Shown here: one piece after another, positions 1,221-57,013 of the stretch
Numbering within the stretch: the stretch's first letter is position 1
Layout of the letters: each line of letters begins with the position of its first letter
Assembly (NCBI GenBank): GCA_965116875.1
Contig: OZ220733.1
Coordinates: forward strand, 5,389,093 to 5,453,092
Direction: 5' to 3'
Source of the DNA: Candidatus Latescibacterota bacterium
GTDB taxonomy: Bacteria > Latescibacterota > UBA2968 > GCA-2709665
DNA length: 64,000 nt
The notes under the pieces: generated by a model
Told to the model about the DNA's origin: nothing
The model's database searches: none
What the model saw: only the letters and a program-made list of their open reading frames with translations
Program-made: the position numbers and the translations under genes

Positions 1221-1306
1221 GAATAACATCACGCCAGTTTGCAAACCTGCGAATGTGGATTGCCGATGGCCAGGCGCCGACAGGCGCGGAACTCGAATTG
1301 CTGCAC
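1221..1306 (-). repeat. attC-like site, subfamily A, degenerate
   Basis: gaataacatcacgccagtttgcaaacctgcg...ggattgccgatggccagg...; shares its core with the copies at 32758, 33689 and 39444. Confidence 0.6.
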
Positions 1307-23683: not shown

Positions 23684-24475
23684 TTATGCAAAGGCCAGAT
23701 TGTACAGCCTCGCGGCTTGTTCGAAAGCCAGCCTCACGAATTCTTTTCTCTCCTTCACCCTCGAATGTTCTGTCAGAACCTCAAGTGTTACTGGCCCACC
23801 GTAGTCGGTATTGCGGATAAACCCGCACAGATTCTCCCAGTCAATGAACCCCTCGCCGGGAATGACATGGTCAACATACTCCCGGACCCGATCTGACAGG
23901 TGAAGCGCCAGAAGCCGATCTGACATATTCTCAAGCAACGTGAAGGGCTTGGGACCTCCAATTTGATCATGTGAAGAATCATAGCAAAACCCGAAAATAT
24001 CACCAGGTAGATTGTCGAGAGCGAGTCGAACAAGATCCGTGGCGGGTCCGGGATGCACGTTCTCCAGTGCCAATTTAACTCCAATATCTCGAAGGATTGA
24101 AGTCAGAGCCTCGCAGGTGTCGAGAGACGCCTCCAGGTGTTCGTGGATATCCCCGGGATCGAGGTCGAATGGACCGGCGTGCACAACGACGATTGGTACT
24201 TCGAGAAAGGCCGCGGCTTCAACCGTGGCGGCAAGGGTCGAATCCGCTTGCGGAAGGTGAAGTGGTTTGCCGTGAATTGTATCCATATGCAGGTTGCAGT
24301 CAAGAAGGAGGTTCCGCAAACCGGATCTCCTTGCGTCTCCCAGGTAGCTGGAGTGCGATTCCTGTGCCCCAAGCGAAATATGCGTGAATCCAGCCTCAGC
24401 GATCAAGGGAAGCAAATCCTCAAGTGGGCAGTCATATGCAAAGGAGGTAGCTATGGACGTCTTTGGTCGGTTCAT
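23684..24475 (-). CDS. Sugar phosphate isomerase/epimerase (AP endonuclease 2 TIM barrel)
   Basis: LALEN, CYDSSH, LHLSD, HVIPGEG.IDW, LEV. Confidence 0.88.
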   Translation of the reverse strand: MNRPKTSIATSFAYDCPLEDLLPLIAEAGFTHISLGAQESHSSYLGDARRSGLRNLLLDCNLHMDTIHGKPLHLPQADSTLAATVEAAAFLEVPIVVVHAGPFDLDPGDIHEHLEASLDTCEALTSILRDIGVKLALENVHPGPATDLVRLALDNLPGDIFGFCYDSSHDQIGGPKPFTLLENMSDRLLALHLSDRVREYVDHVIPGEGFIDWENLCGFIRNTDYGGPVTLEVLTEHSRVKERKEFVRLAFEQAARLYNLAFA

Positions 24476-29280: not shown

Positions 29281-29394
29281 CGCCTGTTCCTCTCCGGATT
29301 GCGAACCCGCGAAGGTGGTTGCCGGAGGCCAGGACACCCTTCGGCGGGCTCAGGACAGGCTCCGCAGCGCTGCGCAAACGTGCTTTTGTTGGGA
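29281..29394 (-). repeat. attC-like site, subfamily A, with REP-like insertion at 29337-29359
   Basis: ccggattgcgaacccgcgaaggtggttgccggaggccaggaca[cccttcggcgggctcaggacagg]ctccgcagcgctgcgcaaacgtgcttttgttggga. Confidence 0.7.
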
Positions 29395-30336: not shown

Positions 30337-31152
30337 TCAAGTCCGGGTCATAGCTGACTTATCCTGCATCTGATCTTCGATCCATTCCATCCACTCAACC
30401 AGTTGAGACAGATATTCGTCTACCTCGCTCTCGCTCGGTTGGACGGGATGAACATAGATTTCAGAAGTTCTCCTCAGAAACCCCCGCCAATCCGGAGAGA
30501 CCTCTTCCAGCAGAGGAAGAACATCGGACCCATTGAGTGTATACCCTCCTCCCCTTGCCATGAGGAGATACCCGCCGCCCAGCACGGCCAGGCGTCCGAG
30601 CTTACGAAGGCGCAATGAGGGCTCCTCAGGAAGGGAGAAGTCGGTTGTATTCTCCTCCTGCAATCCCGCTGCATATCGGACCAGCTCCCTGGGGTAGCGG
30701 AACGCTCCGACGGGATCGGGGGGTGGAATCTCCATCCCTTTGGTCAGATCCTCTCCCCAGACGAGCGTGGCGTCGTAGGAAAGACGCGTTGCGACCTGGG
30801 ATACCCTGTCAACAGATCGCGGTCGCACAAGCCCATGAAGTGAGCGGAATTCCTCTCGAAGGGATGCCTCGGATTCCCGCAACCGGAACCTGTCCGCATC
30901 GGTGAAGGCGTCCAGGATAAACGAATGCAGGTCAAGATCGGAAACTCCGGGTACCGCTTCGTTCCGATGAACACTTCCCCACACATAGACTGAGACAAGA
31001 CGTTCTGCGAATACCTGGCAATACACCGAGACGTGGTTCACGACGGCGTCTCTGAAGTAGCCATCCGCAATGGAGTTGAGATTGACAAACCTGTCGGAAT
31101 CTGTCCCCGCCACGACACCTCCGTCACGCTCGGTTGACTCTGTCGCCGTCAC
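30337..31152 (-). CDS. Nucleotidyltransferase domain protein
   Basis: VYVWGSVHRNEAVPGVSDLD (GS...DxD). Confidence 0.85.
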   Translation of the reverse strand: MTATESTERDGGVVAGTDSDRFVNLNSIADGYFRDAVVNHVSVYCQVFAERLVSVYVWGSVHRNEAVPGVSDLDLHSFILDAFTDADRFRLRESEASLREEFRSLHGLVRPRSVDRVSQVATRLSYDATLVWGEDLTKGMEIPPPDPVGAFRYPRELVRYAAGLQEENTTDFSLPEEPSLRLRKLGRLAVLGGGYLLMARGGGYTLNGSDVLPLLEEVSPDWRGFLRRTSEIYVHPVQPSESEVDEYLSQLVEWMEWIEDQMQDKSAMTRT

Positions 31153-31188
31153 ACGAAAATGATCTCCGTCGATGCCAAATGGCGCCGT

Positions 31189-31956
31189 TCAAGTTGGCCC
31201 GTTCTTTTGCGCTTCAATCAAGAATTCCCTTGCCGTGAACGCCAACTCATCGCCACTATCGAGTCGGTGTTGCAGCCCTAACAGGTGCTCCACGTTCGTC
31301 TCAACTGAAAACCCGGGTACCAGCCAGGGAACGGCCTTCAAGTAGTAGACCACGGCGCCCACATCGGCGAAAGCCAGCCGGCCAGACCATTCTTCAGCAT
31401 TGAGAATGTTCAGGCCCGTCGTTCTCAATTGAACCACGTTCTTTTCGAGGGTGGATCCGGGCCATTGCGGTTCAACGTCAAACGCTGCAAGCAAGTCACA
31501 GGCCCATAACCCGTGAACCTGCTGGGTCAGGAATGTACCGCCAAGCCTGAGAATACGGGCAACTTCATCGGGATTGAAAGCGGAATGGCGATTCAGAACG
31601 AGATTAAACTCGCAATCGGAGAAAGGCACCGGATCGCAATCCGTTAATCGAACATCTACAACTTTCGCTCCGAATGGAACGAGACGTTCTGCTGCCAGCT
31701 CGAGGTTTGGCGCATATTCCTCCGTTGCCACAACCACTTCAGGCCAGTATTCCTGTAAGTCCAGGAACCGCTCACCCCCACCTGTTCCCAGGTCAACAAC
31801 AGATGAGCATCGACGCATGAGCTCGGCAGCCCGTGAAGAATAAGACCATGGAGCTTGCTCTTCGAACATCCTGCCATCCAGATAGGAAAAGTCCCATCCC
31901 GAGAAGAGCTGTTCCTCTTCACGTTTCCAACTATCGACAAGCTTGTCAGAACTCAT
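31189..31956 (-). CDS. Class I SAM-dependent methyltransferase
   Basis: FSGWDFS, VDLGTGGGE, LNRH, GGTFLTQQV; start at MSSDKL. Confidence 0.9.
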   Translation of the reverse strand: MSSDKLVDSWKREEEQLFSGWDFSYLDGRMFEEQAPWSYSSRAAELMRRCSSVVDLGTGGGERFLDLQEYWPEVVVATEEYAPNLELAAERLVPFGAKVVDVRLTDCDPVPFSDCEFNLVLNRHSAFNPDEVARILRLGGTFLTQQVHGLWACDLLAAFDVEPQWPGSTLEKNVVQLRTTGLNILNAEEWSGRLAFADVGAVVYYLKAVPWLVPGFSVETNVEHLLGLQHRLDSGDELAFTAREFLIEAQKNGPT

Positions 31957-32011
31957 ACTGGCCGCTATCTGTGTAAAGCACTTTCGATTGAATGGCCGGC
32001 GCCCATTTTTC

Positions 32012-32094
32012 GCGTGACGTGTTCCCGTGCCCAAACCGCGTAGCGGTTGCGTGAATGCACCCGAGTGCCGCAGCCGGGCACGGACGTGCTATGT
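32012..32094 (-). repeat. attC-like site, subfamily B
   Basis: gcgtgac-gtgttc-CCGTGCCC...GGGCACGG-acgt-gctatgt; perfect 8-bp arms. Confidence 0.75.
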
Positions 32095-32135
32095 GACGCC
32101 GAGTCCACTTCGAATGGTCTCGGTAACGTCGTGCG

Positions 32136-32660
32136 TCATCCGATCACGGAGGCCGTTTCGTGCGGGTTCACTGGCAGCATGAAGTACGCAGTGCAGTCAC
32201 CCTCATCCTCGTTGACAGCAGGTTGAATACCAAAACCCAGGGATAAGTTAAGTGCGTGGTTTTCAACGCTGCTTTAACTGCTGCGCTCTCGTACCTGGTA
32301 GCAGTCAAGATCACGTGCCCAGGAAACCGCCGTCAGCTTTAGACACCTCCCGATGCCCCGACGCCGATATTGAGGTTTGACGAAGATGGCCACGACCTTT
32401 GCTTCCAGTACTGGCCTTTCGTTACGCTCAAGGCCGGGCTTGTCTTCATCGATCCCAATCTGTTGCGTCCAAAACCTCAGGTAACCCACCATTTGATCGC
32501 GATCAAGCGCGACAAGGGTGAATGGCCCGGAGTGGTACTCGCACGTTTTGGCGTCGAGTCCGGCTCCTTCGCCTCTCTTGTCAGCGAAGGCCAGGAATCT
32601 CTGCCATGAGGTGTGCGTGGATTCCAGCCGCTCTATCCGAACGTTTTCAGGCAGTGGCAT
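32136..32660 (-). pseudogene. GNAT acetyltransferase with premature TAA
   Basis: VKPQYRRRGIG; ...QVRERSS*SSVENHALNLSLGFGIQP continues in frame past the TAA at 32274-32276. Confidence 0.8.
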
Positions 32661-32757
32661 TTCAAACTCCTGTCTGTGAGGTGGGTATTGACTGGACATT
32701 CCGTATTTACCACTGCACCGGATGCACCGACGTAGCCTCTTGGCTGGTTTCCATCTC

Positions 32758-32848
32758 ACATAACGTTTCGTCGGCTTGCGAACCCGACCAGCGGGTTGCC
32801 GAAGGCCAGGACGGCGATGGCGCCGCAGTGCAAAACGTGCTGTTATCG
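32758..32848 (-). repeat. attC-like site, subfamily A (best-preserved copy)
   Basis: Gene strand CGATAAC-AGCA-CGTTTTGC...GCAAGCCG-ACGAAAC-GTTATGT, 91 bp. Confidence 0.8.
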
Positions 32849-32885
32849 GACGACGCATCTCGGCCGCGCGTTACTATGCGGCCCG

Positions 32886-33494
32886 CTAACTCGACAGAAG
32901 CCTCTGCCAGCGATGACCTTCGGGATACAGAACCTCCAATCCGGTCCCCAACCATCTCTTTTCCTCTGCGGACATCAGCGGCAGGCACGTCTCAAAGTCC
33001 AGATCATCTTTAGATCGAGGATTCCTGGCTTTGTACAGCAGTTGGGCCTCAATCCGAATGCAGGGGACATTCCCGTATGCAACGATCAAGTCTCCTCGTC
33101 GCCCGCCAATCAGTCTGCTGCGCTTGCTGAACCATCTGTCGCCGTCGCTTTCAGTTAACATGATCTGAAGCTGCCATGACTGAATGTCGGTATGGCCCCA
33201 TATGTCAAATATCCCGTAAGGCAAGTACTCTGATTGCGCCCATGGTCGCAATGAGCCGGGCGGATCAGCCGCATACAGATGCCAATTTGAGAGCCAGCGC
33301 TGTACTTCAAGTTGCTGATCCCGGAACACGATGACGTCAATATCACCGTGGTCTCTAACGCGCTTTCCCACGAACTGCTCGACCGCATAGCCGCCCGCGA
33401 GTCCCCACTGGAAAGGAGCGTTGGCGAACAATTGCGTCAACTCCCGGACGGTCAAGGGTTGCCACCGGTTGATGGGAATTTCGGGAGTGGTCAT
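32886..33494 (-). CDS. Nucleotidyltransferase, aminoglycoside-2''-adenylyltransferase/Lnu-like
   Basis: WGLAGGYAVE...RDHGDIDV, QLLYKA, KDDLDF. Confidence 0.85.
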   Translation of the reverse strand: MTTPEIPINRWQPLTVRELTQLFANAPFQWGLAGGYAVEQFVGKRVRDHGDIDVIVFRDQQLEVQRWLSNWHLYAADPPGSLRPWAQSEYLPYGIFDIWGHTDIQSWQLQIMLTESDGDRWFSKRSRLIGGRRGDLIVAYGNVPCIRIEAQLLYKARNPRSKDDLDFETCLPLMSAEEKRWLGTGLEVLYPEGHRWQRLLSS

Positions 33495-33516
33495 TCAGTT
33501 CGCATTCTGCGCTTAG

Positions 33517-33676
33517 CAGCCCGTTGAAAAAGCCCATCCGGGCTACGGCCGGCCCTTGCGGTCGAAATACTGCGTTACGCTCCCTCGCCGAATCACAGGA
33601 TGGGACTCGGTCGCGCGCCTTGTCTTCGACCACAATGACTCGGCCTCGCCTGCAGAGCGACTTTATCAACGGACTG
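33517..33676. mobile_element. MITE family 1 (160 bp, IS5/IS1182-type ends)
   Basis: TIR CAGCCCGTTGAAAAAG / CTTTATCAACGGACTG (14/16), TTAG duplicated on both sides; partial copy at 54921. Confidence 0.8.
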
Positions 33677-33688
33677 TTAGACGATGTC

Positions 33689-33780
33689 CCCTGACGTTTC
33701 ACGGTTCGCGAACCTGCGATGCAGATTGCCAGAGGCCAGGACTCCTGATAGACGGCGAGGCGCAAACCGACGTGTCAGAA
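33689..33780 (-). repeat. attC-like site, subfamily A, with compensated TGAC/GTCA ends
   Basis: ccctgac-gtttca-CGGTTCGCG...CGCAAACCG-acgt-gtcagaa. Confidence 0.75.
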
Positions 33781-33796
33781 GACGTGCGTAACATAT

Positions 33797-34567
33797 TTAT
33801 GCGACAAGCAAATCGTAATTCTCTTGCAGCCACGTGTTTTCTTCTTCCAGTTCCGCAAGATCCCCGCGTTGGTAGAAGATGGACCATGGGAGGAGTCCTT
33901 GCCTGCCCAGAGTCTCCGTCCTGCGGTATTCTTCCAATTGCAGGTCGCTCAAGGTGTCCAGGATTGCGTTGGAGTCCGTGCCATAGGTGTCGGAAATTAC
34001 TGCCAACCTGGACCTGAGATCGGGCTTCTCGGAAAATCCGGCTCTTCTCCAGTGGTTTTCGCCACGGAGAGGTACCGCGAACCAGGCAAACTGACTGACA
34101 TCGTAGAGAGGATCGCCCGGCTCAGCAAAGTCCCAGTCGATGACCCCATTCAGGGTTCGCCCTTCCCAGACAGTATTCCAGGGTCCGAGATCCCCGTGTC
34201 GGATGATCATTCCCGGTCGCCAGGTCGCATTCGGGACAACCCATTCAGCATCCCCGGGCAGCTCGAAATCCCTCACGGCATTGTGATATCGGGACAGGAA
34301 TCGCGCGACCTCGGCAAGGCCCTCTTCCTGAAGCATCACCTCAGGCCATGGTCGCCGGGCGACTTCTCCAGGGATAAACGAAAGTACCTCGCGTCCGAGT
34401 TCGTCGAATCCGAGGACTCGAGGAACTCCTGAAAAGCCAACCGCCTCCAGGTGGCGCAGCAAGGAATGCACGGCTGGCGTCCACCTGTGGACAGGTCTGC
34501 GCACGGTGTCACCAATCCGTACTACGGGATTGACACTACCCCGGGCGGATTCACCCTCTTGCAGCAT
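33797..34567 (-). CDS. APH-like phosphotransferase
   Basis: VVRIGDTVRRP, HGDLGPWN, IDWDFA. Confidence 0.88.
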   Translation of the reverse strand: MLQEGESARGSVNPVVRIGDTVRRPVHRWTPAVHSLLRHLEAVGFSGVPRVLGFDELGREVLSFIPGEVARRPWPEVMLQEEGLAEVARFLSRYHNAVRDFELPGDAEWVVPNATWRPGMIIRHGDLGPWNTVWEGRTLNGVIDWDFAEPGDPLYDVSQFAWFAVPLRGENHWRRAGFSEKPDLRSRLAVISDTYGTDSNAILDTLSDLQLEEYRRTETLGRQGLLPWSIFYQRGDLAELEEENTWLQENYDLLVA

Positions 34568-34621
34568 CGTCAGATTCTCCCCAGCCTGATTCGTGATTGC
34601 CCTCTTGTCTAGCCGCAGGTT

Positions 34622-34713
34622 TTATCACATTGTGCCGGTTTGCGATCCGCGAAGGTGGCTGCCGACGGCCCGAACGGCGATGGCGCCGCAGCGCAAACAT
34701 GCTTTTGTCGGCT
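34622..34713 (-). repeat. attC-like site, subfamily A
   Basis: gccggtttgcgatccgcgaaggtggctgccgacggcc..cggcgatggcgccgcagcgcaaacatgcttttgtcggct; core close to the 29281, 32758 and 39444 copies. Confidence 0.7.
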
Positions 34714-34727
34714 GTCGCCGGGGACAT

Positions 34728-35600
34728 TCATCTAACCATCACGTCCGGTTCCGGAAGTCCAAGTTCCTGCACCGTCCAATGAAGACCTGCATTCAGGTGC
34801 GCCTTCTGTAGTCTGCGAACCAACGGCGTATGGGGCAGATCGGGCAATCCTGCACGCGAGGCGAAATACCCCGTAACGTACGACGCCAGGTGACCGGCGT
34901 CCGCAAGAATATCCTGTGGAGGCGGCCCGCCCTCGTGGCGAAGACCGGGCAGCCAGAACGCGACGTCGAGGTCGGGATTGCCAGAGCAGGCGTTGTTCCA
35001 ATCGATCAATACGGCACGGTCGGCGCGAAAGCAGATGTTATCGCTTCTCACGTCAAGATGGACAAGCGACTTGCCTTCGGTTTCTACGCGATCGTGTGCT
35101 TCCAGGAGGGTGGGCAGACACGCTGTCAACCACGATTCGCTTGCGACGCGTATCGACAGGAAGGCCTCCGGGTGCGCCGCGACTTCGTGCCAACCTCTGT
35201 GAGTGAAGATCTCGTGATATTCGGGCACACTTGCCTGGCTCTCGTGTATGATTGACAAGCTGTCAAGAACCATATCGACACGGGAAGCGGTCCAGGGCGG
35301 AGGCCACGGGTTCCCGCTCAGGTCCTCCAATACCAATAACGGAGGTTCCTCCTGATCCCACGCCAAAACGGCCGCCATGAAGTCTCCGGAAAGTTGGCGA
35401 TAGACCGAAATCTCGGAATTCAGCCACTCGCTGGTGAGCCGGTCCGTCGCACACTTCGCAAATGCCGTGTCTCCGTCACGGAATCTTACGATTCTTCGGC
35501 AGGCGTCTGTGTAACCTCCCTGAACCGGTAGCAGCCGGTCCACTGCTCGGCCGGTCAGGTCCGCAATTCGCGATTCCAGTCCGTCGCTGCTGGAATTCAT
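34728..35600 (-). CDS. APH-like phosphotransferase
   Basis: GGYT, FAK, HLDVRSDN, IDWN; start at MNSSSD. Confidence 0.88.
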   Translation of the reverse strand: MNSSSDGLESRIADLTGRAVDRLLPVQGGYTDACRRIVRFRDGDTAFAKCATDRLTSEWLNSEISVYRQLSGDFMAAVLAWDQEEPPLLVLEDLSGNPWPPPWTASRVDMVLDSLSIIHESQASVPEYHEIFTHRGWHEVAAHPEAFLSIRVASESWLTACLPTLLEAHDRVETEGKSLVHLDVRSDNICFRADRAVLIDWNNACSGNPDLDVAFWLPGLRHEGGPPPQDILADAGHLASYVTGYFASRAGLPDLPHTPLVRRLQKAHLNAGLHWTVQELGLPEPDVMVR

Positions 35601-35621
35601 GACCTGCCTCAATTCGATTGT

Positions 35622-35657
35622 CGACAACGTTACGCTTGGCAAGTGCTGCTGTTACAC
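35622..35657 (-). repeat. Centre-deleted mini attC-like site
   Basis: cgacaacgttacGCTTggcAAGTgctgctgttacac: both outer boxes kept; right end identical to the 39444 copy (gctgttacacg). Confidence 0.5.
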
Positions 35658-35740
35658 GCTGCCGGGACGATCGTGATTCTTTCCAGGGCGACCGAAGGCC
35701 GAATACCAGCTACATCCTCAGATCGAATGAGGTTCGCGTT

Positions 35741-36370
35741 TCATTTTATCAGGAAGTTGCTGCCATACTGATACGCGATCTCAAGATTCCTCGCCCTGTT
35801 GCTCGATGTCGCAAAGTGATCTGCCATTCCAGGGAGGAGTGCGAACTCACAATGCTTCACGCCTGCGTCAGGGCGGAGGCGATCATGGGTGTATAACCGT
35901 CTCATGGCTTCAGCAATTCCGGACTCATTCAATGCCTCCAATGAATTTCCCACGGGACAGAGTACGAGAGCCCGTTCGACCGAGAGTCGCGGAAACGGAT
36001 AGGTCTCCCTGGCGAATTGGTACTCGTACGCGTATCCGCAGACCCAGACCCGGTCGAACCATCCCTTCAACTTTGCCGGACAGTCGCTCCACCAGACCGG
36101 AAAGACAAAGGCCAGACCGTCTGCCCTGCTGATCTTCCTGTGTTCGGCTTCCACGTCTGACGGTATCGTGAGAGAGGAACGATTTCCCTGCACGTTCATC
36201 TCGCGGGTGTACTCATCCATGTTCATTTCGCATCTGAAGTCCATTTCATACAGGTCCCCGATCTCGTATGAATGTCCTCCATCGTCGAATCCTCGACACA
36301 GTTCGACCAGGACCTCCCCGGTAAAGGACGTCCTCGTCGGATGCGCAAAGACGATGTATGCGTGCATCAA
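35741..36370 (-). CDS. Flavodoxin-like NAD(P)H dehydrogenase (quinone) family
   Basis: FAHP, DLY, FPVWWSDCPAKLKGWFDRV. Confidence 0.9.
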   Translation of the reverse strand: MMHAYIVFAHPTRTSFTGEVLVELCRGFDDGGHSYEIGDLYEMDFRCEMNMDEYTREMNVQGNRSSLTIPSDVEAEHRKISRADGLAFVFPVWWSDCPAKLKGWFDRVWVCGYAYEYQFARETYPFPRLSVERALVLCPVGNSLEALNESGIAEAMRRLYTHDRLRPDAGVKHCEFALLPGMADHFATSSNRARNLEIAYQYGSNFLIK

Positions 36371-36432
36371 AACATCCCTTCATGAGCGTCACTATACGCT
36401 CCGTTCGAGTTTTCCATCTCAGGCGCGATGAC

Positions 36433-36516
36433 GCTTAACGTCTCGGCACCCACGAACCTGGGTAGTGAGGTTGGGCGGAGGCGGGATGGCCGGAGCCGTG
36501 GGTGCTCGTCTTACGC
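36433..36516 (-). repeat. attC-like site, subfamily B; upstream gene stop lies in the R'' box
   Basis: gcttaac-gtctcg-GCACCCACG...CGTGGGTGC-tcgt-cttacgc; the TAA of the upstream gene is at 36511-36513. Confidence 0.8.
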
Positions 36517-37554
36517 GAAGGTGAGTTCACGGGATACCCGATCCGGCTCCTTCGAGACCACCTCGGACCATATGGATGCCGTTCGTTCGAGTGACAACTT
36601 GAGTTGAGACTTGCGCAGATCCTCATTGAGGAGCCACGAACCCGTTTCACCATTGCGAACCGCGTACCAGGTGAAGGCATACAGGACGTCGCGTCTGTCA
36701 TCGAGCTCCGTGATCTCCTCGCCCACGGCCAGGCGGGATGGATACGATGTGATGTGCCGCTCCACAACATGGGCGGGCGCCTTCGCGTACCTTGCTTCTA
36801 CCTCATCCGCCGTAAGTGAGAACAGACGAATGAGGCGGTTCGCAATTCCTTCTTCATCGTGCTCGCGAGCCAGAACGCAAAAACGAGTGAAAACCCTCCC
36901 AAAGGACCGGTCTCCATGCCCCCATTTCTCCATCAGGAACGGGATTGTCAGGCGTGAGAGTTCCTGTACAGAAATCCCTGCCTCGATCAGACGACCTGCC
37001 TCCAGATGTGACTTTGCTCGATGGGCGAGCCCGGTTGCACGTCTGACTCGCTCGATTTGACGCGCCCGGACAACCGATGGATCAAATCGACCATCGGAGA
37101 GCAGGACAACGAACGCGGGAGTATCGCAATCCTCAGACGTGTGAACCGATTGACCGAGATGGCTCTTGTCGGTCGCATGAAAAATCCTCTCATTGGCCAT
37201 CAGCTCATCCTGGTTACGCTTGCCTTTGATCAGGTCGTCTGCCTCGTCGGCTGTGAAATGAAGTCGACCCGCGTCAACAGACGTTCGCCACGAGTCTCGA
37301 GTCCACTCCCCTGTGATGGATAATGAAAGCTCGTCCACGCTTTCTGGAAGACCGTTGTCCGCCTCCCTGGTTGTAATGTAGATGAGGTCTATGTCTGATA
37401 AGGGCCAGGCCGTTCCTCGCCCGACGCTACCCCCGAGAATCACACCCGCAACGCCAGGAACCGATGCGATCCGTTCGATGGCTTCAACGGTTCGCACCTG
37501 GAGAATGTGTTCCCAGTTCTCCAGGTGCGCCCGGAAGAGATCCGCTCTGAACAA
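36511..37554 (-). CDS. Nucleotidyltransferase domain protein
   Basis: ILGGSVGRGTAWPLSDIDL; start set at TTG 37554 after AGGGAG because the ORF-track start lies inside the palindrome. Confidence 0.8.
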   Translation of the reverse strand: MFRADLFRAHLENWEHILQVRTVEAIERIASVPGVAGVILGGSVGRGTAWPLSDIDLIYITTREADNGLPESVDELSLSITGEWTRDSWRTSVDAGRLHFTADEADDLIKGKRNQDELMANERIFHATDKSHLGQSVHTSEDCDTPAFVVLLSDGRFDPSVVRARQIERVRRATGLAHRAKSHLEAGRLIEAGISVQELSRLTIPFLMEKWGHGDRSFGRVFTRFCVLAREHDEEGIANRLIRLFSLTADEVEARYAKAPAHVVERHITSYPSRLAVGEEITELDDRRDVLYAFTWYAVRNGETGSWLLNEDLRKSQLKLSLERTASIWSEVVSKEPDRVSRELTFA

Positions 37555-37569
37555 ATCGAACTCCCTTTC

Positions 37570-37650
37570 GCAAAACGTACCCGCCGTGCCCAAACCCAGA
37601 AGCGGTTGCGCGAAGGGTGCAGCCCGTCGCCGGGCACGGTCGTATTACCC
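37570..37650 (-). repeat. attC-like site, subfamily B
   Basis: gcaaaac-gtacccg-CCGTGCCC...GGGCACGG-tcgt-attaccc. Confidence 0.75.
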
Positions 37651-37684
37651 GGGGTTTGGGCCTGCGCGCAAGGCACAAGATTGC

Positions 37685-39376
37685 TTAGGGTGGGAGACGA
37701 TTTTCGAAGAACCGGGTAGCTCTCTCGAATACTTCGTCGCGATGCTTTGCCAACCCGTGTGTATCGTCGGGGAACACGACCAGCGAGCAGTCTCCACCAA
37801 AATCGTTAATATGCCTCTCGACTTGTCGCATTTCGTCTGTAGTTGCTACAGAGTCAAGTCCACCATGGAAGAGTAGAGCCGGTCTCTTGATCTTTTCGGC
37901 CTGCCACAGCACGGATCTCTCTTCCAGTGCTTTCTCGCGTGCAATTGGGTTGGCCGGAAGGAATCTGTCACGGTGAAGCCGCAAGACTCGAAGACTCGTA
38001 CAGGTGCAGGTCGATACCGCACCCACGAATGGTGAGGAAGGATTCGCCAGGGCGAGAAGGCTGAGAAAGCCACCGTAGCTGTTTCCAAACAGCGCGATCC
38101 TTCTGCCCGAACCAAACTGCTGCTGCCAAAAGACGCCACAATCAACCACATCCTGAACGTCCGAAACTCCACAAACACCTTCATTGGCCCTCGCCAGATC
38201 ATCGCCAAAGCCGGTAGAACCTCTGTAAGCCACACGCACGACCTCGAAACCCTTGCGAACAAGCCACAGCGCCCATGAGTCGTTTCTATCCAGGGTACCG
38301 CCCGGACCGCCGTGCACGTACAAGACTGCGGTCTCTCGCGGGGAATGTGGAACCAAACGTTGTGCCGGAAGTTGCCAACCATCCGAAGCAGGAACTGTGA
38401 ATTCCTCCAGCTTGAAGCTCGGCCCGGCCTCCGTATGCTCAGCCACGGCTGTACATTTACGCGACTCATCCCAACGGTAGACCCTACCGTCCGTGGCCAG
38501 GAAGTAGACGATGTCGCTGTCCGCCACGATGGCGATTTGATGCCAGGTCAGGTTCTTCGAAACGCTGACGCCAGATGGAAGCTTGAGCCGGGCGTCGACG
38601 CGTCCCTCGGGAAACCGCAACCATACGAGTTCATCGGAAAGAACGCAGAGCAGCCTGTCTGTTTGAGCGGAGAATGCCCCTTCCTCGACCGAACGATTGT
38701 CGCAGGTCCACGCGGAGTCTCGTCCGGTAAGATCTATTACCCGAACGCACTCTCCTGCCTCGTCAACCTCCTGCAGTGAAAACCACCTTCCATCACGAGA
38801 CCACGGGTATCTACCAAATCGCTGACTATTCGCACCGGACAGGGGGGAGGACAATTCTCGTCGTTCCATATCATACAGGTAAACTTTCTTGGGGTTATTA
38901 TGTTCTTCGAGGTTCTGGCGATGAAATGCAATCCGGTCACCGGATGGTGACCAATTCGGAAACCTGTCTACAGCATCCGGCGAGGAGGTCAATCTCTCAA
39001 GCCTGCCATCGGCCAGTGTCAGGCGGAATACATCCGGTGGTCGTCCATCGGGTTGCCTGCCGTATGCAGAGAATACGAGCTCTAAACCGTCCGGCGACCA
39101 CTGACTGAAGCCAGCCTTCATGGACGGGTCTTCATACACGATCCTTGTGTTGTCCTGGGATACTTCATGGATACCAATACGACCGTCGTTACCGGAAAAT
39201 GTCAGGCGAAGACCAACTGACGCCCAGCGCGGATGATGCGGCAGGAACTCGGGTGGGATCTCCCCGATGGTTTCCCCTGAGGATTCCATAATCTTCAACC
39301 AGGCCTCACCCGAAATCCCACGGCACTGCAAGACAATTCGACCTGAAATCGGATCGACGTCGAAATCGCTTATCAA
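37685..39376 (-). CDS. S9 family peptidase with TolB/PD40-like beta-propeller
   Basis: WSPDG repeats, HGGP, GNSYGG nucleophile, HGGLD, DTHG. Confidence 0.9.
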   Translation of the reverse strand: MISDFDVDPISGRIVLQCRGISGEAWLKIMESSGETIGEIPPEFLPHHPRWASVGLRLTFSGNDGRIGIHEVSQDNTRIVYEDPSMKAGFSQWSPDGLELVFSAYGRQPDGRPPDVFRLTLADGRLERLTSSPDAVDRFPNWSPSGDRIAFHRQNLEEHNNPKKVYLYDMERRELSSPLSGANSQRFGRYPWSRDGRWFSLQEVDEAGECVRVIDLTGRDSAWTCDNRSVEEGAFSAQTDRLLCVLSDELVWLRFPEGRVDARLKLPSGVSVSKNLTWHQIAIVADSDIVYFLATDGRVYRWDESRKCTAVAEHTEAGPSFKLEEFTVPASDGWQLPAQRLVPHSPRETAVLYVHGGPGGTLDRNDSWALWLVRKGFEVVRVAYRGSTGFGDDLARANEGVCGVSDVQDVVDCGVFWQQQFGSGRRIALFGNSYGGFLSLLALANPSSPFVGAVSTCTCTSLRVLRLHRDRFLPANPIAREKALEERSVLWQAEKIKRPALLFHGGLDSVATTDEMRQVERHINDFGGDCSLVVFPDDTHGLAKHRDEVFERATRFFENRLPP

Positions 39377-39443
39377 CGAATCCTCCCTCCGATAGAACTG
39401 AATCGCACTCCTGGATGAAACGTACGAAACAGCCTCAAATTGG

Positions 39444-39534
39444 GGCTGACGTTCCGCCGGTTTGCGAACCGCGTAGTTGGTTGCCGAAGGTCAGGGCGGC
39501 GATGGCGCCGCAGCGCAACACCGGGCTGTTACAC
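39444..39534 (-). repeat. attC-like site, subfamily A
   Basis: ggctgac-gttccgc-CGGTTTGCG...CGCAACACCG-ggct-gttacac, 91 bp. Confidence 0.8.
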
Positions 39535-39649
39535 GAAAATGATCACTGTGCCCAACCGAGCCAAATCTTGTAAGGCGCACTCTTGACGCCCGAAGCTATT
39601 GGATATTCGTGCTTCGTCGTACCGAATTCAGTTTGCAAATATCAACCAC

Positions 39650-40804
39650 TCATCGATCGCTCAGAAACTCCACAATTCCAGCTTTGTCGTTATTCCGCGC
39701 GTGTTCAATGGGTTTCTTCCCGAGCATGTCTGTGGCTTCAATATCAGCTCCGTGGCCAATCAAGAGTTCAACGACCGTTGTGTTGTTGTTCCTTTCTGCT
39801 GCCAAATGAAGCGGTGTTCGACCGTCCGTCGTTCGGGCATGCACGGAAGCGCCCTGCCTTAGAAGCCAGGATACAGCTTGTATCTCTTCGTGATGGCTGA
39901 AAAGGTGGAGGCAGGTCCTGCCGCCATCAATCAACCCGTCGACTTCACATCCGCACTCGATCAATGCGTCGGCAACTGGATTCTCGGAGGTACGCTTCTG
40001 TTTGAAATGTCGCAGAGTTGACCTCAGCGCGTTTGGATGATTCGGTTCTGCTCCGCCACGCACCAGTGACTGAATAACAGAAACGACTCCGCCGCTCTGG
40101 CAACAAGACACCAGCGGCGTAATAGCTATCCCTATATTCGCCTCATGATTTGGATCGGATCCGGCTCCCAACAGGAGGTCGATTATCTCAAGTTGCCGCT
40201 CTTGATGTAACTCTGTCGCCCGTCCCAGCGCTGAACCCGCGCAATAGTGCAATCCTGTCAGTCCATTATCATCCGTCGCCTTGGCGAGAGACCTATCTCT
40301 CTTCAGGATCCGCCTTACCGCGGACAGATCCAGAATTGCAGCGGCACTGAAAAAGTCAACCGTCGCGCCTCCGTCAATGAGTACTTCAACCAAATCTGGT
40401 CGCCCAGTGTTTGCAGCAAGGGACAGCATTCGTTCTCCTTGCACCCGAGCGTTCGGATCAGCGCCTCTCAGGATGAGGAAGCGGGCGAGTTCGGAATGTG
40501 CATCTGTTTTTGGATGTGAAACATAGGGAGTCACGCAAGTTTTCAGGAGTTCGTCCAACGAACGGGTAGTCACCTTCTCGACCAGGACGTTCAGGCTATT
40601 CACGTCACCCTTTTTCACTAACGTCTTCAAATGTGTTCCAGTGCCCACAGGTGTTGCCAACTTGCTGCGGCGCTTCCTATTCACGCACGTGCGACAGCTG
40701 GGAGCATACCCGGTTTTCGATCTTGCACGTTGATGAAAGTGAGTTGTCGGCTTCGTTTCTCCGCAGGTCGTGCATTTCAGCCATTTCAGTGTTGCCTTAC
40801 TCAT
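39650..40804 (-). CDS. Ankyrin repeat protein with N-terminal CxxC...CxxC zinc finger
   Basis: KCTTCGETKPTTHF...GYAPSCRTC, then GRTPLHLAA-type ankyrin repeats. Confidence 0.85.
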   Translation of the reverse strand: MSKATLKWLKCTTCGETKPTTHFHQRARSKTGYAPSCRTCVNRKRRSKLATPVGTGTHLKTLVKKGDVNSLNVLVEKVTTRSLDELLKTCVTPYVSHPKTDAHSELARFLILRGADPNARVQGERMLSLAANTGRPDLVEVLIDGGATVDFFSAAAILDLSAVRRILKRDRSLAKATDDNGLTGLHYCAGSALGRATELHQERQLEIIDLLLGAGSDPNHEANIGIAITPLVSCCQSGGVVSVIQSLVRGGAEPNHPNALRSTLRHFKQKRTSENPVADALIECGCEVDGLIDGGRTCLHLFSHHEEIQAVSWLLRQGASVHARTTDGRTPLHLAAERNNNTTVVELLIGHGADIEATDMLGKKPIEHARNNDKAGIVEFLSDR

Positions 40805-41072
40805 GCGTGACACCAGTTAACCTTGATTCGTAAGTTTTCGGGGACGTTAATTCGAATATGTGCTTGTAAATAAAGGTGATTAAACGGCGGATTACCAGGA
40901 TACACCAGGTCACTGGCGGTGAAGGGAAAAAATGTCCTTCTATACGTCGATAACGCCCCGTTTCGGATGGTCTTATCGCGTCGCCGCGTTGCTGTTTTTT
41001 TCGGAATTAAGGTTAATTCCTGCGGATGTGACGATGGGTTTGCGATCCGGCATTCAGCGCGATGAGCATGGC

Positions 41073-41155
41073 GCTTAACGTTTTCGTGTCGCTGAATCGC
41101 AAAGCGGTTGGGCGAAGGGTCGAATTGCCCGGAGCCAGGCACGGTCGTGTTAGCT
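41073..41155 (-). repeat. attC-like site, subfamily B, canonical outer boxes
   Basis: GCTTAAC gttttcgtgtcgctg...ccaggcacggtcgt GTTAGCT. Confidence 0.8.
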
Positions 41156-41458
41156 GCGTGACGTAGCTACTCCTGCCCATATGACCTGACATACTCGTAA
41201 ACTCAATATTGCGATTGAAATCCGAGAATGAATGGTCCAGGATGACATTTTTACCTTCCAACCATCGACAAGCTTGGCCAAAATCAATTTACACGCCATC
41301 TGTGAACAATGCCGACCAATTGGATGACTAGTCCCTGACTATTTGTGTGTCGTTTTCGCCGATCCCAAACAGTGTAGCGTTTGTGCAATGGGCCGAATGG
41401 CCCGAAGTCTGGTGCACGGTGTTGGAGTCTGTGCGGGCAGGGAGGGCGGCGTGGTCGC

Positions 41459-45110: not shown

Positions 45111-46487
45111 CTACCTGCTGAACGCGTCGGGCCTGGTGGAGTCCGAGGGCCAGTACCCGTCGCGGCTCGGGTGCCAGCGCTTGCCGCACAGGTCGGAGAT
45201 CACGCTCCATTCGGGGGCGCTCAGATCAGGGTCCGGCTGGAACAGGAAGCGCTGCAGGCCGGCCCGCTCGGAGGCGGTCAGGATGCCGTGCAGGTCGCGG
45301 GCGGTCATGGGCTCGCCCCCGTGCGGACGGCGCCCCGTCGACACCCAGGCGATCACCTTGTTCACATCCCCGATGGCCTCCAGCGCTCGGCGCGTCTCGT
45401 TGTACACCAGCTCCGAGAAGAACTCCTCGGGGAACCCCAGTTCCATGTCCGCCAGGGTCTGCACCCCGGGAAGCTCCAGCCCCAGGAAGGCCTTGACCAC
45501 GGCGAAGCCGTCTGCCTCCAACAGGGTCGGGTTCCAGTCCAGGACCTGCTGCACCCAGCGGGCCATGGTGCCGTAGAGGCCGTCATTCCCGCGGTGCCAG
45601 AAGTAGTGCTTGGGGCAGACGTAGTCGAAGTACTCCGCCATCTCGCCAAATTCGTGCCCGGTCAGTGACGAGAAAGCGGCGGTGCGCGGAATGCCCCCCA
45701 GCTCCACCTTCCCTCCCACTCTCTGCATCTGCGCGTGCACGGCGCGCATGAACCCCCGCGCCGCTTCGCGGCGGGCGCGCAGCCAGTACAGGGCATCCTC
45801 GTTCAGGTCGAACAGGTTCAGTGCCCCCAGCATGCCGCCGGACGCGTGGTAGCGCACCAGATCCGGAGTCAGGTTGTGGAAACGCTCGTTCAGGTGCGCC
45901 ATGCCGCGGGCGACGCGCTCCACATCGGCGCCGATGGCTTCCAGGCGGTGCCGCATGCGACCGTCCAGTTCCAGTAGGGCCTGACCCCGATGGAAGGCAA
46001 GTTCGTAGAAGGTCTCACCGGGCTGGTCCAGGATGACGCCGTGGGCCTGGGGATAGGCACTGGCCAGGTCGTGCACCCCGGCGGCCACCTCGATGGCCCC
46101 GAAAGGGTCCTCCTCCTCGGCTAGGCCGCTGGTGGTACCCTGGCCCCGCTGGTAGAGCAGCCGGAGCCCGTCTCTGGAGTCGAAGATCATGATGTGCCAG
46201 CCCCGGGAGGCGGCGTTGTCGAGGAGCGCGTGGAGCTGCTTCTCCCTCTCGGGGGTGCGGGCCGTTTCCGGGGGCGGCTTGATGCCGAACGCGGCGTACA
46301 CCTTTGGGTCCGCCGCAAACGAGGGGGTGAGGGTGTCCCCCCACAACGGCATGCCGGCCTCGTTCCTGAGCCACATCCGTCCCACCACGATGCCGCCCAC
46401 CCCTCCCGCCTCCCACGCGTCGAAGATGCGCGGGTAATCGTCCAGCCAGTGCTCCAGGGGATTGTGCACGAAGATCCAGGGTACCAT
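45111..46487 (-). CDS. Conserved hypothetical protein (putative TIM barrel), paralogue of 53591-54904
   Basis: Shares PKHYFWHRG.DG.YGT and VIAWVSTGRRPHGG.PM.ARDLHGILTAS with the second copy. Confidence 0.85.
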   Translation of the reverse strand: MVPWIFVHNPLEHWLDDYPRIFDAWEAGGVGGIVVGRMWLRNEAGMPLWGDTLTPSFAADPKVYAAFGIKPPPETARTPEREKQLHALLDNAASRGWHIMIFDSRDGLRLLYQRGQGTTSGLAEEEDPFGAIEVAAGVHDLASAYPQAHGVILDQPGETFYELAFHRGQALLELDGRMRHRLEAIGADVERVARGMAHLNERFHNLTPDLVRYHASGGMLGALNLFDLNEDALYWLRARREAARGFMRAVHAQMQRVGGKVELGGIPRTAAFSSLTGHEFGEMAEYFDYVCPKHYFWHRGNDGLYGTMARWVQQVLDWNPTLLEADGFAVVKAFLGLELPGVQTLADMELGFPEEFFSELVYNETRRALEAIGDVNKVIAWVSTGRRPHGGEPMTARDLHGILTASERAGLQRFLFQPDPDLSAPEWSVISDLCGKRWHPSRDGYWPSDSTRPDAFSR

Positions 46488-47081: not shown

Positions 47082-47180
47082 GTCTAATCTTCTGGCCATT
47101 CGCGCATCCGCGTAGCGGGTTGCCGAATGGCCGAAGGAGCGTCGCGACTGAAGCGCTCCCCGATAGAGCGAAGCATTAGA
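47082..47180 (-). repeat. Degenerate attC-like site
   Basis: ccgcgtagcgggttgccgaatggcc core. Confidence 0.45.
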
Positions 47181-53590: not shown

Positions 53591-54904
53591 TCAGATTCGG
53601 CCCTCTTCGGGCACCTCGCGCCCGCCGTCCCAGAAGCCTGGCTTGTCCGTCCCCGACGGCCAGTACCCGCCAGCGTCTTCATCCCACTGATTTCCGCACA
53701 TCGACGAGATGATGTTCCATTCCGCCGCCCCGAAATCCGGCTCGGGATGGTACAGGAAGCGCTTCAACCCCGCCTCTCGCGAAGCAGTCAGGATACCGTG
53801 GAGATCGCGCGCCTGCATCGGGTCGCCTCCATGGGGGCGGCGCCCGGTGGACACCCAGGCGATCACCTTGTCGGGATCGCCTATGGCCGCCAGTGCCCGC
53901 CGGGTCTCGTTGTAGACCACCCCGGAGAAGAATTCGTCGGGAAAGCCCATCTCCATGTCCATAAGCGAGTTGACGCCGGGCAGTTCGATGCCCAGCAGCG
54001 CCTTCACGACGGCGAAACACTCCGCCTCGCTCAGGGACGGATTCCACTTTCGCAACCGTTTTACCCAGCGGGATATGGTTCCGTACATACCGTCCATGCC
54101 GCGGTGCCAGAAATAGTGTTTGGGAAAAATATAGTCGAAATACTCCGTCATCTGACAGTAATTCTGTCCGGTGAGCGATGACCACGCCGCAGCCCGCGGG
54201 ATACCGCCCAGCTCCACCTTGCGATCGACGGCGTCGACCTGTTGCCGCATGTACTGCCAGTCGAAGCGAGAACGCTCCTGCCGCTTGCGCAGCCAGTAGA
54301 GTACGTCCTCGTTGACGTCGAACAGAAGCATTGCCCCCAGCATCCCGCCATCGGCGTGGTACCGCACCAATTCCGGTGTCAGATTGTGCAAACGCTCCCG
54401 CATGTGGTTGATGCCACGTTGTATTCGATCGATCTCGGCGCCGACCTGGGCGAAGCGGGCCGCCTCACCGGGTCGGACCTCCAGGAGCTCGCCCCCGTGG
54501 TGGAAGGCCAGCTCGTAGTGGTTTTCGCCCGGACCGTCGACAATGACGCCGTGTACCTGAGGGAAAGCGTTCATCTGGTCCTGCACGTGGGCGGTTGGGC
54601 CGCCTCCAGCGAAAATCAGCAGTCGCCAGCCCCGTTTTGCGGCGTTGTCCAGCATGGCGTGCAGCTTCTTCTCTTTTGTGAGGTCGCGCGGACGCTGTTC
54701 CGGGACTTCCGCCCCCAGGGCCTCGTACACCTTCGGATCGGGAGCCCACGCCGGAATGGTGGTGCCATCGTCCTGGAGGAATGTCATGCGACCCACGGCC
54801 AGACCGCGCACGCCACCGTCCTCCCAGGCGTCGAACCGCTCCTCGAATCCGTCGAGCCAGTGTTCGAACGGGCTGTCACTGCAGGTGAATACCCAGAGTT
54901 TCAT
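53591..54904 (-). CDS. Conserved hypothetical protein, paralogue of 45111-46487
   Basis: Same conserved motifs as 45111-46487. Confidence 0.85.
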   Translation of the reverse strand: MKLWVFTCSDSPFEHWLDGFEERFDAWEDGGVRGLAVGRMTFLQDDGTTIPAWAPDPKVYEALGAEVPEQRPRDLTKEKKLHAMLDNAAKRGWRLLIFAGGGPTAHVQDQMNAFPQVHGVIVDGPGENHYELAFHHGGELLEVRPGEAARFAQVGAEIDRIQRGINHMRERLHNLTPELVRYHADGGMLGAMLLFDVNEDVLYWLRKRQERSRFDWQYMRQQVDAVDRKVELGGIPRAAAWSSLTGQNYCQMTEYFDYIFPKHYFWHRGMDGMYGTISRWVKRLRKWNPSLSEAECFAVVKALLGIELPGVNSLMDMEMGFPDEFFSGVVYNETRRALAAIGDPDKVIAWVSTGRRPHGGDPMQARDLHGILTASREAGLKRFLYHPEPDFGAAEWNIISSMCGNQWDEDAGGYWPSGTDKPGFWDGGREVPEEGRI

Positions 54905-56867: not shown

Positions 56868-57013
56868 AGGTAACGTTTTCGCCACTTGCGAACCCGCCCG
56901 GCCTTTTCCGGCGGGTTGCCGTCAGGCCAATGAGTCCTTCGACATTTCGACAGGCTCAATGCAAGCAAGCTCAGGATGAACTCCGCGACGCTGCGCAAGT
57001 GGACAGTTTATGC
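56868..57013 (-). repeat. attC-like site, subfamily A, with nested REP-in-REP insertion at 56936-56980
   Basis: aggtaac-gttttcg-CCACTTGCG...CGCAAGTGG-aca-gtttatgc. Confidence 0.75.

Follow-up and report, generated by a model that had tools for sequence, protein, structure and literature searches.

attC-type sites of unusual hairpin geometry in a large cassette array of Candidatus Latescibacterota, and a candidate integrase for them

The array and its sites

The stretch of DNA examined here, referred to below as the window, is the last 64,000 nt (positions 5,389,093 to 5,453,092 of contig OZ220733.1) of the one-contig, 5.45-Mb genome of a Candidatus Latescibacterota bacterium. Its genes lie on the minus strand, and many of them are followed on their 3' side by a hairpin-forming repeat, which we propose to be the attC-type recombination site of a large array of gene cassettes. 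Read on the gene strand, the repeat consists of a heptamer with TAAC at its end, some 4 nt (ACGA or ACGT in most cases), an arm of 8-10 nt, a variable middle, the complementary arm, 6-7 nt ending in AAC, and finally GTTA with three further bases. An earlier reading of the letters alone, referred to as the initial annotation, had named eight such sites; all eight proved to be real, and their coordinates and their placement on the minus strand were confirmed. Where genomes have to be told apart, G000 is the source genome, G001 and higher numbers are genomes of relatives, and L-numbers are fetched loci.

nhmmer profiles made from the eight named sites and searched against the 5.45-Mb genome returned confident copies on the minus strand only, between 1295 and 56929 of the window and in the first 22.8 kb of the record, and none elsewhere in the genome. 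Because copies lie both in the end piece represented by the window and at the start of the record, the array crosses the origin of the record and extends over about 86 kb. In all 15 genomes of the genus it adjoins one and the same core flank, which consists of genes for a peptidoglycan-binding protein and a family-B polymerase. Two covariance models, one built from six sites with a hand-set structure of a 7-bp R box and a 9-bp L stem (R1) and one built from 20 matches (R2), located 12 sites in the window (Table 1) and 7 in the first 23 kb of the record, giving at least 19 on the chromosome. Other routes to the sites were tried and set aside. A strict pattern-plus-hairpin scan found one named site and several false ones, and an energy-ranked hairpin scan was unspecific in GC-rich DNA; both were replaced by nhmmer and the covariance models. 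With MAFFT followed by RNAalifold, 11 sites yielded no consensus of use, their L arms being misaligned, and the hand-set structure on the six-site alignment was used instead. A search of the repeats against Rfam, which holds no attC family, gave 0 matches.

No recombinase was found by Pfam scans among the genes between the sites, and the cargo of the array includes methyltransferases and Kelch proteins in addition to the families listed in Table 1. Two different repeats resembling miniature inverted-repeat transposable elements (MITEs), about 170-200 bp long, are intercalated in the array, and both gave depth spikes and many loose ends in public contigs. The attC-less cassette junction of Table 1 is a synteny break common to several relatives; in one of them (G001) a full attC lies 3' of the homologue of the gene at this junction.

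Table 1. Features of the array and of related loci. Coordinates are positions in the window unless an L-number is given; scores are those of covariance model R2.
Feature	Position	Strand	Evidence
attC-type site, last detected at array 3' end	1221..1306	-	46.9 bits
attC-type site, R' end decayed	29282..29360	-	37.9 bits; alignment
cassette junction without attC: R''-like heptamer over stop codon, fused to next cassette start	31146..31190	-	sequence
attC-type site; 8-bp L stem, spacers 4/6	32012..32094	-	62.6 bits; geometry
cassette genes: GNAT acetyltransferase, aminoglycoside-2''-adenylyltransferase-like (ANT(2'')-like), two APH-type phosphotransferases	32274..40813	-	Pfam
further cassette genes: flavodoxin-like reductase, nucleotidyltransferase, S9 peptidase, ankyrin-repeat protein	32274..40813	-	Pfam
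attC-type site; L stem with one mismatch and one wobble, spacers 4/7	32758..32848	-	60.4 bits
MITE-like multi-copy repeat, between attC and next cassette gene	33512..33689		many copies, 96-98% identity, genome and genus
attC-type site; 9-bp L stem, spacers 4/6	33689..33780	-	68.7 bits
decayed attC-type site, core alone recognisable (partial)	34638..34698	-	26.8 bits, model positions 14-66
attC-type site; perfect 9-bp L stem, spacers 4/6	36433..36516	-	72.6 bits
attC-type site; 8-bp L stem, spacers 4/7	37570..37650	-	62.8 bits
attC-type site, bulged G at position 16 (from R'' start)	39444..39534	-	58.6 bits; insert column
second, different MITE-like multi-copy repeat	40816..41019		dozens of copies, 90-94% identity across genus
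attC-type site, L arms decayed	41073..41155	-	51.4 bits; fold
weak, decayed attC-type site	47087..47155	-	27.9 bits
attC-type site, long branched terminal structure, 9-bp L stem	56868..57013	-	44.4 bits; fold
Y-rec A-type recombinase and IS91/Y2-type transposase element (see below)	L022:4021-6069, L023, L016:900-2954

Cassette junctions and hairpin geometry

The R box of the sites is chimeric in the manner of attC, R'' being complementary to the R' that opens its own cassette. Across the cassette, the distal three bases of R'' paired with the preceding site's R' at 1.84 of 3 positions on average and perfectly in 24 of 57 cases, compared with 1.09 of 3 for R' of the same site and 0.95 +/- 0.11 in shuffles, of which 0 of 2000 reached 1.84. 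Positions 5-10 of R' track R'' of the next site, and a variant GAT/ATC core was found matched across a cassette. Junctions between genomes were compared in explicit pairwise alignments, in place of breakpoints taken from the ends of BLAST high-scoring segment pairs, which were too noisy. In three comparisons with attC cores 98-100% identical (two independent attCs), homology broke off inside R', after GT or GTTA, and it also stopped inside R' in two further pairs at 91%; the upstream gene was common to all pairs. Since homology ends inside R', the attC moves together with the gene upstream of it, as it does in classical bottom-strand recombination, and the near-identical pairs show, as judged from their breakpoints, that cassettes have been moved by crossover inside R', at the bottom-strand AAC. 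The bottom strand was predicted to fold better by a mean of 0.94 kcal/mol (73 sites versus 33; Wilcoxon p = 3e-5), which is the direction of bottom-strand advantage described for attC sites of mobile integrons (PMC5027507), and GC skew places the bottom strand on the leading-strand template, the replication orientation given for 25 of 30 sedentary integrons in PMC5371416. The initial annotation had allowed for a hairpin system distinct from integrons; this did not hold, as the sites carry every genetic signature of integron cassettes.

Turnover of the array was apparent when it was compared with those of four relatives (G001, G007, G009 and G012). The core flank is 80-81% identical to theirs, and the cassettes held in common are 84-91% identical, with one gene reaching 99.3%; cassette order is shuffled between species, with duplications. 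The greater likeness of the cassettes than of the flank, together with the shuffled order, leads us to infer that cassettes were exchanged after the species diverged, a conclusion drawn from levels of identity and not from a dated event. An open reading frame (ORF) at 45111-46487 (minus strand) encodes a 458-residue cassette protein that belongs to no Pfam family and has a paralogue at 53591-54904 (70%). Its DNA is 99.2-99.3% identical to that of G007, G009 and G012, whose array-flanking core is at about 80%, and this looks like a recent transfer between species. The ORF was considered as a hidden recombinase and rejected; having no Pfam family, being single-copy with a 70% paralogue and enzyme-like, it is taken to be a cassette gene. 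In two public runs, 0.96 of the words sampled from the stretch are present. Two metagenome runs, X1 and X2 (sponge, coral reef), each cover a small share of it and hold single-cassette contig pieces of 150-310 nt from window positions 31900-41300, some of them without a difference. Joints in public contigs were evaluated as possible excision products and discarded as repeat artefacts, as they fell at the two MITE-like repeats or at look-alike attC sites (37617 to 32068), and the placement of reads on the array gave no usable evidence of cassette excision.

We examined whether the arms covary, since the initial annotation had held that arm sequence changes from copy to copy while pairing is kept, and that selection acts on the single-stranded hairpin. 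In an alignment of 20 sites, 8 of the 9 L-stem pairs vary on both sides; the paired share of cells is 90.2%, and it falls to 26-38% if the partner is slid. The same number of pairs varies on both sides in 111 distinct sites from nine genomes of the genus, with 89.1% of cells paired against 29-39%. None of 500 shuffles reached the observed score with either set, both alignments having been fitted to the model, which favors the structure. The covariation is strong, both claims were supported, and the alignments show that the hairpin is under selection.

The shape of the hairpin was then derived from the sites with the clearest stems. An uninterrupted Watson-Crick run of at least 6 is present in 53 of 109 sites, and the commonest spacers are 4/7 (24 sites), then 4/6 (7), and not the unpaired stretch of about 5-6 nt on each arm that is expected of attC. 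The 3' spacer is the longer one in 53 of the 53 clean sites, by 1 to 6 nt and by 3 in 32 of them, in agreement with the asymmetric internal loop (about 4 versus 6-7 nt) noticed in the initial annotation. The spacer sequences are conserved, with A at position 8 and AAC ahead of GTT in the set of 112 sites. At the ends of the same 112 sites, position 7 is C in 99, positions 5-6 are A in 95-97, and positions 1-3 of R' are G, T and T in 104, 100 and 84, respectively. The AAC inverse core at the 5' end, the GTT core at the 3' end and L arms that pair whatever their sequence are all features of attC. In folding, a three-way junction directly follows the 9-bp L stem.

The sites had also been said usually to lack an extrahelical base, and this was right for the classical positions but not strictly so overall. 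Classical attC carry extrahelical bases at about positions 16 and 23/24 of the R''-L'' arm; the family does not conform, a bulged G at position 16, as in the site at 39444, being present in 9 of 112 sites across the genus (8%). Closer to the R box, the two bases that open the 3' spacer form pairs with spacer columns 9 and 10. These columns are Watson-Crick in 61% and 60% of cells, compared with shuffled means of 38 and 36 of about 100 cells (36% each) and with 2-25% in neighboring registers, and 0 of 2000 shuffles were as high. Both extra pairs form in 44 of 111 sites, and a lone unpaired base is left at position 11 in 41 of the 44. As two spacer bases on each arm covary, about 40% of the sites (41 of 111) therefore have a cryptic one-base bulge at position 11. 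When the extra 2 bp are counted, the loop has A8 opposite five bases (RRAAC), followed by the 2 bp, the bulge and the 9-bp stem.

A control set of 17 sites, composed of class 1 sites from a plasmid record and 14 sites linked to the canonical integron integrase IntI in the same phylum, was passed through the same classifying script. Spacers in the control sites range from 2/3 to 5/6 nt, and a bulge at position 15-16 is present in all but one of the 17 (16), confirming that the geometry of the family departs from that of classical attC. MAFFT placed R'' of the IntI-linked sites one column out of register between groups. On the gene strand, the bulged base at position 15-16 is G or T in the IntI-linked arrays of the phylum (L170, L020, L180, L168 and L018), so that the extrahelical base of the bottom strand would be C or A, not G; in class 1 sites the gene-strand base at this position is C. 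Four metagenome sites (L206:166-247, L222:2028-2116, L250:855-942 and L263:1254-1332) share the spacer sequences of the family and have 3/7 geometry, a 9-bp stem and a G+C content of 0.48-0.53, which suggests that the site type may occur beyond the high-GC genomes studied here; no integrase was found in these short loci.

A recombinase beside the arrays of relatives

In practice, two things define an integron: an integrase with an extra domain that is unique to it, and attC hairpins, whose extrahelical bases are read by that domain. Canonical IntI is absent from this genome. The best match to TIGR02249 scored 96 bits (cut-off 265) and fell on the XerC-like and XerD-like genes only, which are the two PF00589 genes of the genome; tblastn with IntI of a relative returned nothing beyond them, and no IntI relic was found near the array head. 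There is accordingly no intI gene encoding the IntI-specific domain beside the array, as a complete integron would have, and, short of an enzyme supplied in trans, the cassettes could no longer be moved by anything on the chromosome.

The site family and IntI are distributed differently among the relatives. Family sites occur in 37 of 61 relatives, including 13 of 14 genus members. IntI occurs in 6 of the 61 and in 17 of 168 genomes of the phylum, and in 0 of the 14 genus relatives (0 of 15 genus genomes including this one); a copy in G017, which belongs to the same family, is 52.7% identical to IntI1. When 29 loci that flank IntI genes were searched with the family model, the yield was a single site, at 19 kb from an IntI, plus one weak match. 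The 13 IntI loci examined with their flanks adjoin no family site, barring the one 19 kb off, and the arrays beside IntI in the phylum are made up of short sites of a different, classical type (spacers 2/3-5/6, bulge at 15-16). Most of the 80 loci listed by a 19-base motif scan of genome contigs were discarded as chance matches, and several model matches were present only in loci from records titled Candidatus Latescibacterota. The metagenome scan gave a model match in 6 of 80 loci and an IntI in 0 of 80, and two sites compared with plasmids by blastn gave no match.

A tyrosine recombinase, here called Y-rec A, lies inside an array of G016, and its homologues in relatives are 44-73% identical. 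The gene or a fragment of it is present in 17 fetched loci, which come from related genomes and are not independent, and family sites are present in 15 of these. The sites mostly begin 0.8-4.8 kb downstream of Y-rec A on the same strand; one locus is divergent, and in two the gene lies inside the array. The divergent integrase that the initial annotation named as one possibility has gained strong circumstantial support insofar as an IntI-related recombinase without the additional domain accompanies them at 15 of 17 loci, with canonical IntI never adjoining.

The affinities of Y-rec A lie with IntI. Among NCBIfam models it matches the integron-integrase model best (197-241 bits, below the cut-off of 265), with two aligned segments between which about positions 179-235 are left out, and the nearest solved structure is VchIntIA (2a3v; E 1e-41), again matched in two stretches, skipping residues 173-239. 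The PF00589 span is about 160 residues in Y-rec A versus 200 in IntI, and an insertion of 31+10 residues present in 2 of 2 IntI sequences is absent from 7 of 7 Y-rec A sequences. Y-rec A keeps the catalytic residues, and its C-terminal tail is common with IntI and not with Xer. It therefore falls outside IntI as defined by PF00589 with an additional domain of about 35 residues and at least 265 bits to TIGR02249. It is no Xer protein either, scoring 175-194 bits with XerC (cut-off 335) and 166-186 bits with XerD (cut-off 330) and standing apart in the tree: among 22 rows, the IntI and Y-rec A families are separated from XerC and XerD of this genome with 100/100 support, and IntI is monophyletic beside an unresolved Y-rec A polytomy. 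Names given to the Y-rec A family are inconsistent between sources. Full-length forms (L312:6101-7231, L311:7643-9004 and L313:5845-7062) have an extra N-terminal domain of about 70-100 residues, which is missing from those of G011, G013 and G016 and from the IS91-linked forms. The latter, a subclade of 46-48% identity, lie directly upstream of a Y2/IS91-type transposase in a multi-copy element (Table 1), and a transposase of this type was found beside Y-rec A in G020 and G017 only. In G020, 4 of 6 copies of the element lie 2.4-3 kb upstream of cassette arrays, and in G017 copies directly follow both IntI genes. The array-head copies in G011, G013, G016, G038, G044, G047, G057, G058 and G060 have no IS91-type transposase within the fetched loci.

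An attI-like region is conserved downstream of Y-rec A in G011, G013, G044 and G047, and it is present in G000 too, at bases 23,700-24,010 of the record, past the end of the window. The attI-like site is about 150 nt long, the five genomes span two families of the order, and conservation among them ends at ..TAG|TTA... The junction heptamer (R') is a perfect, 7 of 7 complement of R'' of the first attC in four of the five genomes, G000 included; the match is the footprint that cassette insertion at attI is expected to leave. All that remains of the Y-rec A gene in this genome is its final 12 nt, just after the stop codon of the flanking gene, and the gene appears to have been deleted, with the 12-nt stub and the attI-like site left behind. 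In G013 (L306, oriented positions 1827 and 4270) there are two attI-like cores and a second Y-rec A gene fragment, which suggests a duplication at the array head.

Competing explanations and known systems

We consider, with a probability of roughly 0.6, that the repeats are attC-type sites of a sedentary chromosomal cassette array representing a distinct integron lineage of Candidatus Latescibacterota, with Y-rec A as the cognate enzyme and its gene deleted here. The cognate enzyme would be an IntI-related tyrosine recombinase without the additional domain of about 35-40 residues found in IntI. The folded site would present an R-box helix (..TAAC / GTTA..), an asymmetric loop of A8 versus RRAAC, often a 2-bp helix with the position-11 bulge, and then the covarying 9-bp L stem and a branched terminal structure. 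Y-rec A would bind the R box and the L stem of the folded bottom strand as well as the attI-like duplex. The asymmetric loop may bend the hairpin one way and, together with the position-11 bulge, may set strand choice, a role that spacer and extrahelical bases play for IntI (PMC2095811). The first cassette would be inserted at the end of the attI-like site (..TAG|TTA..), with Y-rec A upstream and mostly co-directional. With the Y-rec A gene deleted and the stub, the attI-like site and the array left, the array is now an orphan; its 19 chromosomal sites in a genome without IntI make it a cluster of attC sites with no integron integrase (CALIN) by current definitions, which ask for two or more attC sites with no IntI nearby. 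More weakly, we infer that the different hairpin shape might be the counterpart of the missing domain, because the additional domain reads the classical extrahelical bases in IntI. A bolder form of this proposal, that the arrays are a second kind of integron whose integrase is of the stem of IntI, never had or has lost the additional domain, reads the 1x5 loop, the position-11 bulge and the three-way junction, and has its own attI, is in our view somewhat less likely than not.

Several observations weigh against the assignment of the sites to Y-rec A. The enzyme is linked to them by position only, 2 of the 17 loci (L313 and L314) have no family site, and one of the five attI junctions (G047) is mismatched with the first detected attC. 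Many copies of Y-rec A are decayed, most array-bearing genomes are without the gene, most of the genus has lost it, and 25 of 47 relatives lacking a strong Y-rec A homologue have family sites. The Y-rec A family is huge and spread over many phyla (of 8000 candidates scored, 5423 proteins reached E<=1e-40), and most of its members are not known beside cassette arrays. As one subclade is part of a multi-copy IS91-type element, Y-rec A could be an integrase of a mobile element that lands at array heads. Only two of the 22 rows of the tree are Xer, and it is midpoint-rooted, with an unresolved backbone. The pairing of "no bulge" with "no domain" is weakened by the covarying position-11 bulge. Finally, only near-identical pairs were clean with respect to the crossover point: pairs with core identity of at least 85% were mixed, 8 sharing the upstream flank only and 6 the downstream flank only, and one of the latter looks like a hybrid attC broken mid-site through homologous recombination.

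The most serious competitor is an ordinary CALIN, left by the loss of a canonical IntI, in which the shape of the sites would be a lineage flavor that IntI tolerates and Y-rec A an unrelated, IS91-linked integrase inserting near array heads. All signatures of an integron are indeed present, CALINs lacking IntI are frequent and a wide variety of attC is tolerated by IntI (PMC4889954, PMC2095811), and a point mutant of IntI1 is described in PMC2095811 as recombining sites without extrahelical bases. Canonical IntI is also present in members of the phylum, G017 of the same family among them, one Y-rec A subclade is accompanied by an IS91-type transposase, with copies following both IntI genes of G017, and the family at large reaches well beyond this phylum. 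However, the sites do not accompany IntI where it does occur: the arrays at the 13 IntI loci are of the classical type, and the nearest family site is 19 kb away. Y-rec A is followed by the conserved attI-like site, at which the first cassette stands with a perfect R'/R'' match in four of five genomes from two families, and most array-head copies have no IS91 transposase close to them. None of the 15 genus genomes has IntI, yet cassette order differs among them and the cassettes are more alike than the flank. We therefore regard an ordinary CALIN as unlikely, though it deserves to be taken seriously.

The absence of IntI from a genus that seems to have exchanged cassettes between species could also point to the host recombinases, since the XerC-like and XerD-like genes are the only PF00589 genes of this genome and Xer acts on the folded single-stranded site of a filamentous phage. 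Nothing, however, ties Xer to the repeats; their AAC/GTT core is of the IntI type, the attI-like partner stands beside Y-rec A and not Xer, and Xer is universal, whereas the arrays are patchy (37 of 61 relatives), all of which makes recombination of the hairpins by XerC/XerD very improbable. That the repeats are not recombination sites at all, and instead intergenic hairpins such as terminators or repetitive extragenic palindromic (REP)-like sequences, would fit their intergenic position after genes and their stable folds. This we find scarcely credible, as it is already contradicted by the pairing of R boxes across cassettes, by synteny breaks exactly inside R' and by the attI-like junction; moreover, no T run lies 3' of the repeats, their AAC/GTT ends are conserved, cassette order is shuffled between species, and Rfam offered no match.

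Clade-wide, there are large shuffled arrays whose sites lack the classical features, and the surviving neighbor is a recombinase without the additional domain. Should Y-rec A work on these sites, the integron concept would widen and part of the CALIN puzzle would be explained; the arrays would offer a natural experiment on strand choice and synapsis without the classical extrahelical-base contacts, and a new structure-specific recombination system for engineering. If they do constitute a second kind of integron, many arrays now classed as CALINs without an integrase may possess one that has gone unrecognised, and cassette recombination would not require the additional domain. Even if Y-rec A is inactive on the sites, they still show how far attC geometry can drift. 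Literature searches of limited coverage found nothing joining Latescibacteria, integrons and attC, and nothing on domain-less integrases heading attC arrays.

Compared with classical attC, as known from class 1 cassettes and the Vibrio VCR, the sites have the same RYYYAAC / GTTRRRY-type ends, imperfect hairpin and covarying L stem, chimeric R boxes, crossover in R', better folding of the bottom strand, and position 3' of promoterless genes. Classical attC are described as having unpaired spacers of 5-6 nt on each arm, of unconserved sequence, and extrahelical bases at 16 and 23/24 (PMC5027507), whereas the spacers of the family are 4 versus 6-7 nt, or 1 versus 5 with the covarying 2 bp counted, and of conserved sequence, with the position-11 bulge in about 40% of sites, a G at position 16 in 8%, and a three-way junction after the 9-bp stem. 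The array resembles CALINs (Cury et al. 2016) in having many attC-type sites and no IntI anywhere on the chromosome. It differs in being far larger than the average of about 5-6 sites given for a typical CALIN in PMC4889954 and PMC9024848, and in its genus-conserved locus, its attI-like site and its stub of a non-IntI recombinase gene.

IntI (TIGR02249; 2a3v) is the closest curated family and structure to Y-rec A, with which it shares the N-terminal SAM-like domain, the catalytic residues and the C-terminal tail; Y-rec A differs in lacking the additional domain, in scoring below the cut-off, in being mostly co-directional with the cassettes, and in the extra N-terminal domain of its full-length forms. 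A group of integrons with the integrase gene co-directional with the cassettes is mentioned in PMC4889954, where their integrases are IntI and fall inside the monophyletic IntI group; their orientation is like that of the Y-rec A loci, which differ by the lack of the defining domain. IS91-family elements with a tyrosine recombinase are like the Y-rec A subclade of G020 and G017, but array-head Y-rec A is followed by the attI-like site (shown for G011, G013, G044 and G047) and not by a transposase. It is current practice not to count as IntI those tyrosine recombinases near attC sites that are without the IntI domain (PMC4889954), and a classification of tyrosine recombinases states, in its treatment of the integron-like subgroup, that the insertion "is not fully conserved" (PMC8138268).

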